Shown here: positions 51,938 through 63,200 of the stretch, piece by piece
Numbering within the stretch: the stretch's first letter is position 1
Layout of the letters: each line of letters opens with the position of its first letter
Assembly (NCBI GenBank): GCA_963706715.1
Contig: CAVPNI010000003.1
Coordinates: 704,001 to 768,000, forward strand
DNA from: an uncultured Verrucomicrobiae bacterium
Lineage (GTDB): Bacteria > Verrucomicrobiota > Verrucomicrobiia > Chthoniobacterales > Xiphinematobacteraceae
Length of the DNA: 64,000 nucleotides
Direction: 5' to 3'
Translations under genes and position numbers: made by a program
The notes under the pieces: model-generated
Database searches by the model: none
What the model saw: the letters and a program-made list of their open reading frames with translations, nothing else
Told to the model about the DNA's origin: nothing

Positions 51938-52911
51938 TTCGACTTCAATACTCCTATATCAATTAATTGTTGAACGCTTAACGGAAGTTGATGCTGAATT
52001 CCTAGACCCGGAGACCCAAAGCCAGGAGCAGATAACCCGGTTTTCACTTGAAATGGTTGAAGCACCTCGTAAGCCTCGTAGGCTACCCCACTTTCATAGC
52101 TGGCAGGTAGTCCTCTGCTTGAAAAGGGCGTTCCCTTTGGAGCAACATAATAACCAGTAGCTCGTGGACCAAATCTATCAATCAAGGTACCAGCCGTCAG
52201 TTCAGTTTCAGTAACACTGCCAAGAAAACCTGCATTACCAGGCCAACTAGTCGGAGTCGCTTGTCCTGAATACGGAACTAAAGCTTTTGTTTGGACGCTA
52301 GCAGCCGAACCCGGCTTCCCAAACAGCGGTTTGACGCCCGATGTAGCAATAGCTCCCTTAGAAGCAATCTTTGTAGGTGCAGAACCCGGTGCAATAATAA
52401 CCGACCCTGCCGCTACGGTAGTAGCCACCAGCGAATTCGGATCATAGAGACCTGCACGAGCATTCGGGGAAAGCCTTTCATTGAGCCAAGCTGCCTGAGC
52501 GTGCAGATGACCTGCCTGCATACCCATTAAATTCATCCCGTATCCCATTGCACTAGAGAGAAGCGAAATCCCTCCCGGCACGGCATCCAGAACCGTATCT
52601 GCAATTGAGTGACTTAGGTTACTGGCTTGTGCTCCGGCATTTTGAAGAAACGGAGTTGCAATTCTTCCAGTGGGATCGGTGTAGACAACGGGGTATGTCT
52701 GTTCTGATGCGATTTGCCAGGATATTTGGATTTTATCCTGTTGATTTACAGAGAGAACGATGATTTTTGGCAGGCTCGTTTGGAGACTGTTGTAAAAAAT
52801 TTTCCAGACGCTGTTTTTTGATGCATCAGGCAGACACGTCCAGACAGCAGCTATGATCCATAGAGCAAGAAGCCATGAAGGCAGGAGTATTCTTTTAGCT
52901 GCGGGGAACAT
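51934..52911 (-). CDS. Cassette D: leader + Rhs tip with TNT-family NAD+ glycohydrolase
   Basis: PVVYTDPTGR; WPGNAGF...IDRFG...APKGTPFSSRGLP...YEV...APGFGSPGLGIQ. Confidence 0.85.
   Translation of the reverse strand: MFPAAKRILLPSWLLALWIIAAVWTCLPDASKNSVWKIFYNSLQTSLPKIIVLSVNQQDKIQISWQIASEQTYPVVYTDPTGRIATPFLQNAGAQASNLSHSIADTVLDAVPGGISLLSSAMGYGMNLMGMQAGHLHAQAAWLNERLSPNARAGLYDPNSLVATTVAAGSVIIAPGSAPTKIASKGAIATSGVKPLFGKPGSAASVQTKALVPYSGQATPTSWPGNAGFLGSVTETELTAGTLIDRFGPRATGYYVAPKGTPFSSRGLPASYESGVAYEAYEVLQPFQVKTGLSAPGFGSPGLGIQHQLPLSVQQLIDIGVLKSK
52304..52692. repeat. 389-bp direct repeat, copy 1 (rhs pre-toxin segment)
   Basis: Matches 60649..61037; both encode PVVYTDPTGR...KPLFGKPGSA. Confidence 0.95.
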
Positions 52912-52955
52912 GGCAAGCAGCTAAGGATAAGCAGCTAAATAAAGAAGGCGAGTTT

Positions 52956-60024: not shown

Positions 60025-60270
60025 TTAGGCATCAAAACAATGTGGGATCGCAAGGAATTCCAACCCCTCATCAATACCTTGTTTGATCTCTTGACGCCTC
60101 GCATTTGGGATCTGGCTTATCGCAACCGTAATGACCCTATCAACTCCTATTTCAATAGGTACGATAGTAACGTCACTGCTTTCGATGTAGTGAAGTTGAT
60201 CCCGTTTCGCGATCTTAACTTCAAAGGCTTCAGTACGAGCCGAATTTGGACCGGTTTTGGTAAAGTTCAT
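60025..60270 (-). CDS. Putative immunity protein for the Rhs toxin
   Basis: 81 aa, overlaps the rhs stop (ATGA). Confidence 0.75.
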   Translation of the reverse strand: MNFTKTGPNSARTEAFEVKIAKRDQLHYIESSDVTIVPIEIGVDRVITVAISQIPNARRQEIKQGIDEGLEFLAIPHCFDA

Positions 60271-63200
60271 TTGTAGATAATCTTTGTTTTCCAGGGCTGT
60301 GTTGCATCTTGAATGATGATTTTGTTGACGTTGGGATTGAGCATGAGCGTAGGTTTTTCGATTTTACTCCAGATGCTTGTTGGACTAGCCCCACCTGTCC
60401 ATGCCCTTACAACTCCAGAAGCTTCGGAGGCAAACTGACGTGAGAGATTTTCCCAAGGCACAATTGCCTGATCATATGGAAATTTAGAGAACAAGTCCTG
60501 AGCATCGAGTGCTTGTCCCGCAGAAGTCTTTTCAAGTGTCGTTAATCCTGACATTTCAGCCGCCGATCGATTTGCTCCTGCTCTTCCAGACCAGAATGCA
60601 GCTTTATCGCTTGCTGTACTGACTCCTGACGACACAACATCTGCAACCGCCGAACCCGGCTTCCCAAACAGCGGTTTGACGCCCGATGTAGCAATAGCTC
60701 CCTTAGAAGCAATCTTTGTAGGTGCAGAACCCGGTGCAATAATAACCGACCCTGCCGCTACGGTAGTAGCCACCAGCGAATTCGGATCATAGAGACCTGC
60801 ACGAGCATTCGGGGAAAGCCTTTCATTGAGCCAAGCTGCCTGAGCGTGCAGATGACCTGCCTGCATACCCATTAAATTCATCCCGTATCCCATTGCACTA
60901 GAGAGAAGCGAAATCCCTCCCGGCACGGCATCCAGAACCGTATCTGCAATTGAGTGACTTAGGTTACTGGCTTGTGCTCCGGCATTTTGAAGAAACGGAG
61001 TTGCAATTCTTCCAGTGGGATCGGTGTAGACAACGGGATTTCCTAGAGCGTAGCTAAGAAGGTCAAAACTTCCGGCGTGGCCGAGAGGATCGGGGGAAAT
61101 AAATTCTCCAAAATCCGAATCGTAATCGCGCTCTCCAATTCTGGTGTATCCCGTTTCATCCAGTCTTTTTCCTAACCAATGTGAAACTTGCGCGAGGTCG
61201 CGGTAGGGGGAAAGGGGCAAGGATAATGCTCCTGGAATTGGTCCATAGCCGCCAACAGCAGTGGGTGTTCCTTGAATGTTAGTCCCATCGTGCATTGCAA
61301 CGATGTGTCCCAAGGCGTTATGGATCATTCCATAGTTCTTGGCTGGTGTGAGAATTTCTTCTAAGCCTCCAATGCCCTGGAGTCCGCCATGGGTTCCATC
61401 TTTATCTACTCCATATAGTTTCCAGGTGGGGGCTTGGTTATTGAGTTTTATTCCCACTTCCAAAAACTCAACGTTCGGATCGTAATAGCTGAGGATTGTC
61501 TGGGTTTTCGCTGTCTGGGCGTTTCCGGCTATTAAGGGGGTGTGGACGGTTTTTAGTCTTCTTCCAAAGCCGTCATAGATCGCAGTCCAGTTGTAGCCAT
61601 TGTTTTGTTCGTCTCGCTCGGTTACTGCGGCAAGCCGTCCCCAAGCGTCCCAGGTGTGTTCTTTGGTGGTTTTCTTATTCCGATCTGTTGGATCAACTGT
61701 TTCTTTTTTGGTCAGGTAGCCCTCTTTGTCAAAGTTCCGAATGATTTCTCGCGGCTGCGGGGTTACGCTAAAGTTGCAGGCCGGATGGGGCGGACAAAGG
61801 GAGATTGCGTTATCAGGGTTAATTGCCGATGCTGTTACTGAGTATATTCCCGGTGTTAAGGCAATAGGTACGCTCCAAGTGCCGTTTTCTCCGGAGGGCC
61901 GCACCGGATCGTATTTTAGTCCATTAATAGCAATTTGGATTTGCTCGCTATGCCGAGTTGTTCCTGCTATGTTTGATTTCCAGGTTCCACGAGTAGTTGT
62001 TGCCAGATGCGCTCTTCCCCAATTGTCTTTTTGTGTGACTTTATGTTCAAAAGCAGGATGGTTCTCTCCGTAGGAGGGATGGCTAACTTTGGTGCGAATT
62101 CCTAAGCCGCCATCTTGTGTATTTTCATCAAATTCATAGCTCAAAAGATGGCCTGCCGCTGTTTTTTCTGTTAGGAGTTGTCCTCGGCTATTGTAGGAAT
62201 ATTGTCTCTCTTGAACGACTCCTCCGCCTACTTGGAGTTGATATGTTTTCGGGAATGAATTCGCCAACCAGGTCAGTTTTTCATTGAGAAGCGTGGCACC
62301 TCCACTTTCTGTTGCTACGTTCTCCAGTCTTCCTAGGCTGTCGTGTATCAGGGTTTGGCTCAAGTTGGCTTTTCTCCGCTGGGTCAGTATCCCATTGGTT
62401 CCATAGGAATAGGTGATTGCTCGGTTTTGTCTAGGCAGAAGGATGTTGCTCAAGAGGTTATCGGCGCGATGTATAAAGTTTTGTTCCAGGTCTCCCAGGT
62501 TAAATCCGCTCCGGCGTCCGGCCCCATCCCATTTCTGAGTGACGTTTTGGTGAATGGCTCCGGCAATGGTGATGGTTTCTTCGGTGATGTTTCCATATGG
62601 GCTGTAGGAGCGGCTGATTTTTATGGGATCTCCAGCGCCCGTTTGGAGAAGGGAGGTTAGGTGTCCTCGCCGATCCCAAGCAAATTCCTGGCTCCCGGTG
62701 ATCGAACCTGTGGTGGCGATTTGTTTTACGGGTCCTAATGGGTGGTAGGTAAATGTGTGGGTCAGTTGCCGAGCATCGGTAACGCTTTTCAGCCGTCCGA
62801 TATTGCTTCCTTCGCTGTAGTAGGTGTATGTTCTCTCTCTGGCGTCTCCTCCTTTTCCACGGAGGTATTCTGTAAGTTTGCGACCAGCTTTGTCGTATGT
62901 GGCATGCCACTGCAGGTCTTCGGAACCGGGCAGATTCCATTGGAGAAGGTTGCCTGCCACATCGTGGAGGAAGTTTGTTCGGGCTCCGCCAGGGAGTGTG
63001 GTGCTCTCAAGTCTCTCTAAGGCATCGTATGTATGGAGGGTTTTGTTTCCTACTCCATCACTAAAGGCAGTCAGGTTTCCATTATGGTCGTACTCAAATT
63101 GTTCTTTGGTTTTGTCCGCAAAGGTTTTTAATAGCGGATTTCCTAAGTGATCAAAGTAGGTCGTTGTTGTAACCGCGTAGGTTCCGCTTCCCTCGGTTTG

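Follow-up and report, generated by a model that had tools for sequence, protein, structure and literature searches.

Few weapons of bacterial competition are as widespread as Rhs proteins and related polymorphic toxins, and the vehicle and the source of the toxin tips that they exchange have been open since 2009. In that year Jackson et al. (PMC2935791) proposed, in the accessible part of their paper, that tips are displaced via a circular intermediate and that an episomal pool of tips exists; the same text states that no integrase is known to accompany Rhs. Here we describe an element lodged in the 3′ end of an rhs gene of an uncultured Verrucomicrobiae bacterium (GCA_963706715.1), within a window of 64,000 nucleotides (the whole stretch of DNA analysed; contig CAVPNI010000003.1, positions 704,001 to 768,000). 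An 8.3-kb insert with genes for a primase and an Xer-like tyrosine recombinase separates the Rhs core from an older toxin tip. Our preferred account, which we hold to be fairly probable, is that the insert is an integrated small mobilizable replicon, damaged by an insertion sequence (IS), and that elements of this kind mediate tip exchange.

The described systems that come closest share parts of this arrangement. In the available text on Rhs displacement and orphan arrays (PMC2935791; Koskiniemi et al. 2014, as cited in PMC4927057), displaced tip/immunity modules stand behind an intact rhs gene and retain a piece of shared sequence, as at our locus, and recombination between the shared pieces can swap the core-fused tip (PMC2935791). 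Our locus differs in that the cassette is part of a replicon-like element, equipped with a primase, a recombinase, repressors and at times a relaxase, which is found in both circle-like and integrated form. Recombinases have been reported beside related loci several times. As far as the accessible portions of these papers go, XerC/D genes stand beside polyimmunity loci (Zhang et al. 2012, PMC3482391), integrase and transposase genes lie inside cdi orphan arrays (Ruhe et al. 2016, PMC4927057), Rhs-associated integrases occur in bee-gut bacteria, where further work was called for (Steele et al. 2017, PMC5727410), and integrases flank some clusters in a Stenotrophomonas preprint of 2026 (10.64898/2026.07.13.738213). 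The first three of these reports resemble our case in that a XerC/D-type recombinase or integrase gene adjoins a polymorphic-toxin locus, and their authors guessed at cassette capture; compared by description, and in the portions available, they are remarks without definition of an element, replication module, circles, site or survey.

A further parallel is rAID-1 of Bacteroidales (Ross et al., 10.1101/471110; PMC12247911), for which the available text describes a XerD-like recombinase, orphan immunity genes in arrays, and intergenic motifs resembling those of integrons, with biogenesis given as unknown. As in our case, a gene for a XerD-family recombinase is followed by co-oriented toxin-related cassettes and conserved non-coding motifs. 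Compared by description, rAID-1 holds orphan immunity genes for defence and is not described in that text with rhs attachment, a primase, a relaxase or circles, whereas the arrays studied here hold tips and small open reading frames (ORFs) and hang on an rhs gene. A full-text literature search covering few subscription journals, without supplements, found no published description of a primase–recombinase replicon that carries Rhs tips. An earlier note on this DNA, made from the sequence alone, had mentioned similar primase–integrase–XRE trios near rhs loci in other bacteria, for which no mechanistic description was known to it. New here are a four-copy backbone with different tips, the linkage to rhs across phyla, circle-like relatives and a conserved motif of ~20 bp.

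The earlier note had reported 389-bp rhs repeats 8345 bp apart, and both a position-by-position comparison at an offset of 8345 and a repeat finder bore them out. The direct repeat is exact (389 bp, 100% identity), and there is zero similarity in the flanks beside the identical run of either copy. Genome-wide, this 100% identical pair is unique, the next copies being 76%, 70% or less identical; the repeat finder also placed weaker copies in three cassettes further down. Between the repeats lie a tip (tip0), its presumed immunity gene, two IS pieces, an XRE repressor gene, a 1024-amino-acid primase/ATPase and the Xer-like recombinase, followed by a leader that is fused to a displaced tip with a TNT domain (Table 1). 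ORFs and Pfam matches likewise reproduced the gene order that had been given, from the rhs core through tip0 to the leader–TNT fusion and the cassettes behind it. What had been called IS debris does include an IS630-type fragment, but also a full-length IS that is 99.7–100% identical to other copies in the genome.

Within this genome, the same backbone recurs with different tips. The primase gene is present in four copies in the 3.04-Mb genome (three full, one cut by a contig end), and their protein is 100% identical. The backbone around it has 99.6–100% identity among the four copies, which lie in the window, at 5908–12298 of contig C1, and at 958725–965149 and from 966552 to the contig end of contig C3. 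The full backbone measures ~6.4 kb (C1:5908–12298) and the copies span 5.4–6.4 kb: window 52693–58118 equals C1:12298–6873 (99.96% over 5426 bp) and also matches C3:958451–964184 and C3:966552–969877, while C1:5908–12332 equals C3:965149–958725 at 99.86%. Similarity among all four copies ends at one base, after the SEQTY codons of the leader and 15 nt before the D codon of a DPTGR motif. Beyond this base stand four different tips, each with its own small downstream ORF, and the rhs genes of the genome diverge from one another at the same base. The left end of the backbone is just as sharp as the right; neither terminal inverted repeats nor a short direct repeat were seen at the two backbone ends. 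The two C3 copies form a tandem with a single tip/immunity pair in between.

Compared with the C1 and C3 copies, the window element is truncated by an IS insertion at 58118, with loss of the left ~965 bp, the second XRE gene included. The C1 copy shows a fuller layout, consisting of an rhs tip (at the contig start), a small ORF, an IS630, two ORFs, a MobF relaxase, XRE2, orf100, XRE, primase, recombinase, leader–tip and a small ORF. Its relaxase (948 aa) scores 212 bits with NF041492 against a cut-off of 100, so that the absence of conjugation genes claimed in the earlier note holds for the truncated window copy only. A relic on contig C4 with an 80%-identical relaxase was uninformative, being cut up by ISL3 and IS66 elements.

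Some integrative mobilizable elements and genomic islands integrate at the 3′ end of a gene and supply a substitute for the end that they displace. As with such elements, the target here stays whole, the old end remains as a stub on the far side, direct repeats flank the insert, and complete copies have a relaxase. Unlike theirs, the substitute end of our element is no copy but a different toxin with its own presumed immunity gene, so that integration would change the function of the target. The element has a recombinase of its own, above the NF002331 cut-off, and in the C1 copy a MobF relaxase but no full conjugation apparatus, as an integrative mobilizable element should; the relaxase is absent from the truncated window copy.

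To define how general the association is, we turned to relatives of the primase. The family is very large: of 7999 proteins scored, 2252 matched at E ≤ 0.001, many of them on contigs of 4–7 kb. The 156 loci retained with the help of an alignment of 24 family members, together 1.57 Mb, represent 76 of 578 relatives in species-representative genomes and 80 of 571 metagenome relatives, and come from metagenome-assembled genomes (MAGs), isolate genomes and metagenomes. Carriers belong to the Verrucomicrobiota, Acidobacteriota, several classes of Pseudomonadota (beta- and gammaproteobacteria), deltaproteobacteria, Myxococcota, Planctomycetota, Riflebacteria and others, and include cultured isolates of Massilia and a Bacteroidia MAG. 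The module is conserved: a recombinase gene (44–57% identity) directly follows the primase gene and an XRE gene stands ahead of it in nearly all loci with flank. Seven of the 76 genome loci also have a relaxase upstream. The bacterium's own family offers only four other genomes, whose recombinase matches, at 33–36% identity, look like housekeeping Xer.

Linkage of homologous modules to rhs, whose absence the earlier note had named as a refutation of its proposal, was strong in this set. A profile of the Rhs core-end, built by coordinates from six intact rhs genes of this genome and iterated once, gave 151 matches in 94 of the 156 loci, against 10 matches in the 3.04-Mb genome as background, and 148 of the 151 lie on the primase strand. 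Among the 149 primase–recombinase modules in these loci, a core-end follows within 3.5 kb in 49 of the 79 with at least 1.5 kb of downstream flank, and one precedes within 6 kb in 55 of the 89 with at least 2 kb of upstream flank; 37 of the 47 modules with both flanks have at least one. Several loci repeat the window architecture, with a full-length rhs gene upstream (for example loci L052, L058, L081 and L095; in L058 it encodes 1853 aa with immunoglobulin-like domains and RHS repeats) and a short leader/core-end/tip ORF after the recombinase gene. The integrated copies in relatives are flanked by direct repeats of the rhs end of 43–273 bp at 72–95% identity, such as 86 bp at 89.5% (L058), 175 bp at 93.7% (L047) and 151 bp at 94% (L071); the window repeat is the longest and cleanest of these.

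We also considered a phage origin or a phage satellite (phage-inducible chromosomal island). Phage-inducible islands share the XRE–primase–recombinase trio with our element and differ from it in packaging and phage genes. PHROGs matches of the element proteins are to primase, integrase and repressor only, with no structural or packaging gene among them, and only 2 relatives were found among 2.9 million viral contigs; on these grounds the candidate was rejected.

In ten of the 156 loci the locus is an entire contig whose two ends overlap exactly, by 39–297 nt; the resulting units measure 6.3–12 kb and have one primase and one recombinase gene each. In eight of the ten, the recombinase gene is followed on its own strand by a Rhs-end/tip ORF. 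About 117 of the 156 loci are whole contigs (counted from the locus tables), and five of the ten overlaps are 127 or 141 nt long, which are typical k-mer sizes. These contigs suggest a circular or a tandem form, as evidence and not as proof of an episome. The circle predicted in the earlier note thus has counterparts among relatives, although neither a circle nor an excision product nor a fusion allele was seen in this genome. Between the recombinase gene and the cassette, some circle-like loci, namely L088 (ahead of the motif) and L043, contain what look by eye like toxin–antitoxin pairs, each a PIN-like ORF with a small partner, which might serve to stabilise a plasmid.

Between the recombinase gene and the first cassette, many loci share a short motif, approximately GAAAAC(T)CGCGTC(N)GGGG(T)T. 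Its reading frame varies, and stops sometimes stand ahead of it, so that its conservation is at the DNA level. With a profile of 53 distinct instances, which were extracted from the loci by position, nhmmer found 80 matches of at least 12 bits, all within the loci and all 80 on the primase strand. The motif lies no more than 2.5 kb downstream (median 753 nt) of 57 of the 112 recombinase genes with at least 600 nt of flank. It stands ahead of 41 of the 62 first cassettes but of only 8 of the 43 other Rhs ends, and none of the 13 long rhs genes has it in front, a distribution which argues that it marks the end of the element and neither each cassette nor the target. The motif could be a recombinase site, an origin or an operator; we favour the first because the recombinase is of the simple Xer type. 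The latter scores 421 bits with NF002331 (XerC subfamily; cut-off 371) and has no arm-binding domain. A simple Xer-like recombinase, one short conserved site and a small replicon also characterise plasmid multimer resolution (Xer/dif-like systems and Cre/lox).

The order of recombinase gene, site and promoterless cassettes in one orientation is likewise that of integrons. The element differs from them in that its recombinase falls below the cut-offs of the integron-integrase models (TIGR02249, 109 against 265 bits; NF011946, 72 against 435 bits), that the motif stands at first cassettes far more than at the others counted above, and that the cassette boundaries lie in rhs homology. Identity as an integron was rejected on the first two of these grounds.

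Where near-identical backbones carry different cargo, their similarity ends inside the rhs-derived handle at varying places. The switch falls at ...ARYYNP| in L129 and L130 (99.9% identical over 6163 bp), at ...N|NPxxxxDP in L179 and L184, within DPIGL...NTY in L122, L127 and L138, at ...KERDD|ES among the four copies on a single Bryobacterales chromosome (L051/L052), and 15 nt before DPTGR in this genome. Measured from the motif, it lies 100–150 nt beyond in L129/L130, in L051/L052 and in this genome (the last on a weak, non-significant motif match), ~300 nt beyond in L179/L184 and ~46 nt beyond in L127/L138, while L122/L138 have no motif match. Switch points scattered in this way through shared rhs sequence fit recombination within that sequence, which a fixed site-specific crossover would not produce. 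Integration is probably homology-guided (RecA-type), and within the exchange account we regard this as distinctly the likelier route than catalysis by the recombinase, which more likely resolves or excises units than integrates them. The tip swap by an integrated circle that the earlier note had envisaged is supported in its architecture, its rhs linkage and the four tips on one backbone; the switch points fit homologous recombination better than integration by the recombinase.

From these observations a mechanism can be proposed. The cargo would be an Rhs handle–tip–immunity cassette that comes directly after the recombinase gene and a short leader; its handle is the last piece of the rhs core or, in the window, the pre-toxin segment. 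In the circular form this handle would pair with the corresponding stretch of a resident rhs gene, and a single crossover of the Campbell type would join the incoming tip (tip0) and its immunity gene to the resident Rhs core, leaving the old tip (TNT) and its immunity gene behind the element, fused to the leader. Recombination between the 389-bp handle copies would release a circle of 8345 bp and restore the rhs–TNT fusion. The recombinase would act on the motif, either resolving multimers and tandem copies or excising units. By supplying a start, and perhaps export, the leader would keep the displaced tip translated, and the overlapping old immunity gene would stay expressed while kin still fire the old toxin.

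Several observations weigh against tip exchange by such elements. The window copy, truncated by an IS, may be immobile. The tips that flank the C3 tandem have only the DPTGR codons (~15 nt around them) in common, and the flanks of the C1 copy gave no blastn match to each other, so that a crossover between handles cannot explain these two cases. Either the crossover took place in the 6.4-kb backbone, or the event was site-specific, or the assembly paired the flanks wrongly. For the C3 pair, a crossover inside the 6.4-kb backbone of a resident copy is the best explanation. The public runs that contain this sequence are three soil metagenomes in which it has small shares, and which gave short low-coverage contigs (99–100% identity) without joints; no circle, excision product or rhs–TNT fusion appeared in these contigs. 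The terminal overlaps of circle-like contigs would equally arise from perfect tandem repeats, of which L050 is an example. Around four in ten modules with adequate flank lack a Rhs core-end, and some of them carry other toxin cassettes, such as PT-TG with LHH in L091 or, as a weak match, Tox-SHH in L066; many of the loci, moreover, come from MAGs or short metagenome contigs. Finally, nhmmer found no motif match of at least 12 bits in the 3.04 Mb of this genome, whose leaders gave weak, non-significant matches (E 0.28–0.62 in a search space of 7 kb), with motif-like stretches in the window leader at 52804–52817 and 52704–52718.

A rival explanation is classical site-specific integration, in which the Xer-like recombinase itself joins an attP beside its own gene to an attB located where the rhs core meets the tip, and the repeats are att sites. 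The recombinase gene adjoins the junction in nearly every module, the four copies and several rhs genes switch at the same base without homology on the left side, the C3 flanks share just the few bases around DPTGR, and the motif behind the recombinase gene has a single orientation throughout. We nevertheless consider this explanation unlikely. Integrated copies with a full upstream rhs gene have the motif on the recombinase side only, the switches mostly fall well past it at positions that differ between lineages, no common overlap sequence is visible at the −15 junction, and 389 bp of perfect identity far exceeds a core site.

Less probable still is that a selfish element inserted into a pre-existing orphan array without relation to tip exchange, the 389-bp identity being due to gene conversion between the main gene and the first orphan. 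Orphan arrays with shared handles and no element do exist (on contig C4) and are well known from the available text of PMC2935791, the backbone ends are sharp on both sides, and the genome is full of IS copies. Such an insertion would leave unexplained the co-orientation and adjacency of module and Rhs ends across phyla, the handle–tip cassettes on circle-like contigs, and the different cassettes on identical backbones. An assembly artefact, in which the assembler created the repeat or mispaired the flanks around the four-copy 6.4-kb repeat, is the most remote of the three in our judgement. Contigs C1 and C4 start 21–22 nt before a DPDGR motif and end inside rhs core-ends, and the end of C3 falls within a copy of the element; at exactly these places the assembly graph is tangled, and alternative joins in the population and plain repeats are indistinguishable. 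The artefact would agree with these contig ends and with the lack of joints in the public soil-metagenome runs. The window copy, however, has unique sequence to its left and right within a contig of 970 kb, the leader/tip junction of the fourth copy recurs independently in a soil metagenome contig, and the same architecture is found in unrelated assemblies. Integration of a mobilizable replicon by way of shared rhs sequence remains the account that we prefer.

The features of the locus are listed in Table 1.

Table 1. Features of the rhs locus and the inserted element, in window positions
Feature	Position	Strand	Basis or remark
Resident rhs gene, whole ORF in window	60267–63998	−	open at window end; ~3045 aa in total
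rhs core, 3′ part	61038–63998	−	RHS_repeat, YD repeat and Rhs_assc_core matches
Repeat copy 1	60649–61037	−	PVVYT-DPTGR and ~125-aa pre-toxin segment; starts 15 nt upstream of DPTGR D codon
tip0, toxin domain now joined to Rhs core	60267–60648	−	no Pfam family
81-aa ORF, presumed tip0 immunity gene	60025–60270	−	position and 4-nt overlap with rhs stop
IS630-type fragment (DDE_3)	59562–59897 (ORF 59564–59881)	+	Pfam; >15 genome copies, 98.5–100% identity
Full-length Tn5/IS4-type IS	58118–59561 (transposase ORF 58199–59554)	+	Pfam; near-identical copies elsewhere in genome (see text)
Small ORF	57852–58109	−	ORF list
Small ORF	57650–57850	−	ORF list
XRE/RstR-like repressor, divergent from primase gene	57199–57660	+	HTH_3; phage_RstR subfamily below its cut-off
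DnaG-type primase and P-loop ATPase, 1024 aa	54047–57121	−	CHC2 zinc ribbon, Toprim
Xer-like tyrosine recombinase	52956–54044	−	Phage_integrase and SAM-like N-terminal domain
Leader, 73 codons	52693–52911	−	identical in all four backbone copies
Leader–pretoxin–TNT ORF, 325 aa	51934–52911	−	ORF and Pfam
Repeat copy 2 (pre-toxin segment of displaced cassette)	52304–52692	−	389-bp identity
Displaced TNT toxin domain (NAD+ glycohydrolase family)	51934–52303	−	PF14021 TNT, E = 7.5e-25
81-aa ORF, presumed immunity gene of TNT tip	51692–51937	−	4-nt overlap with TNT ORF stop
Backbone as kept in window (truncated orf100, orf66, XRE, primase/ATPase, recombinase, leader)	52693–58118	−	DNA identity to other copies
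Three older cassettes	47716–51685	−	repeat families D1, D2, D4–D7; ORFs; Pfam; junction alignment
Cassette A	50777–51685 and 50363–50761	−	leader/tip and small ORF
Cassette B (TNT)	49440–50312 and 49215–49433	−	leader/tip and small ORF
Cassette C	48203–48973 and 47716–48081	−	leader/tip and small ORF

The resident protein is identified as Rhs by matches to PF05593, TIGR01643 and TIGR03696, and DUF6531 and RHS repeats are present in its N-terminal part (L021). The neighbourhood of the rhs gene contains no type VI secretion gene. The boundary between core and tip is a motif of the type PxxxxDPxG[LR], with variable toxin domains beyond it, and in an alignment of 21 rhs-type junctions of the genome the sequences part company either 15 or 27 nt ahead of the D codon. 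For tip0, an atlas comparison gave a weak lead to ADP-ribosyl cyclase-like proteins (score 0.90, to be taken as a lead only). Every tip is followed by a small ORF, two of which overlap the tip ORF by 4 nt (60267–60270 and 51934–51937). These ORFs have no match to a Pfam-type family and are presumed, from their position, to be immunity genes.

In the primase/ATPase, a zinc ribbon and Toprim (residues 1–365) are fused to a P-loop ATPase domain, and the C-terminal part falls in clusters that carry PF27228; it is presumably a replication protein. The leader of the backbone is fused in frame to whichever tip comes next. Cassettes A–C have a second, signal-peptide-like type of leader, joined 27 nt upstream of the DPTGR D codon. 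That these leaders are scars of earlier rounds of exchange, as the earlier note had suggested, is a weak proposal that draws solely on their non-significant resemblance to the motif. More widely, ORFs ahead of displaced or cargo tips often start with basic residues followed by ~15–20 hydrophobic residues, like a signal peptide, and the conserved DNA motif directly follows such a start in several phyla. This likeness was judged by eye only and left out of all counts; examples are found in the window (52693–52911, 51494–51685, 50115–50312 and 48746–48973) and in L033, L034, L050, L074, L087 and L095.

Other observations concern the surroundings. Downstream of the third copy (L018 5228–5860 and 6198–7390; G000:C3:955227–957389) are three paralogous ORFs of 123–127 aa and a 210-aa protein consisting of three excisionase-type helix-turn-helix repeats (TIGR01764). 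In the verrucomicrobial loci L030 (8402–9307), L035 (10027–10827) and L064 (4373–4966 and 5975–6661), no Rhs end is present in the ORF that follows the recombinase gene; these ORFs share a junction peptide (...VTVVT.VLGCAVAPN or ...TTALGCVV.P.) followed by variable sequence, and may be a second polymorphic-protein family served by the same element. A repeat of ~215 bp between cassettes C and B (48995–49217) has more than 15 copies in the genome (85–100% identity) and resembles a miniature transposable element. IS copies from six or more families (IS630, IS3, IS4/Tn5, DDE_5, IS66 and IS110) crowd around the rhs locus, at 44475–47443 and in L021. Positions 28000–31000 of the window have a G+C content of 58–60%, against 42–52% in the rest, and genomes of the same genus listed next to the 3.0-Mb genome studied are of ~0.9 Mb.

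Taken at its widest, the finding may be stated as follows, and we put this forward tentatively. The elements would be the long-postulated episomal reservoir of Rhs tips: pan-bacterial, self-replicating and mobilizable ‘warhead plasmids’ whose handle re-arms Rhs, whose Xer-like recombinase and ~20-bp site capture, resolve or release units, and whose leader keeps the displaced toxin harmless and drives translation of the old immunity gene, which would shield a cell that changes its weapon from its own kin. If the recombinase and the motif act as a pair, they would constitute a simple new site-specific system. The primase/ATPase gene with its adjacent recombinase gene would provide a marker for toxin/immunity cassettes in genomes and metagenomes, and the element family would make the source and the vehicle of tip exchange directly testable. 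For the bacterium itself, the exchange account may explain how immunity to the old toxin is retained after a switch to a new one.

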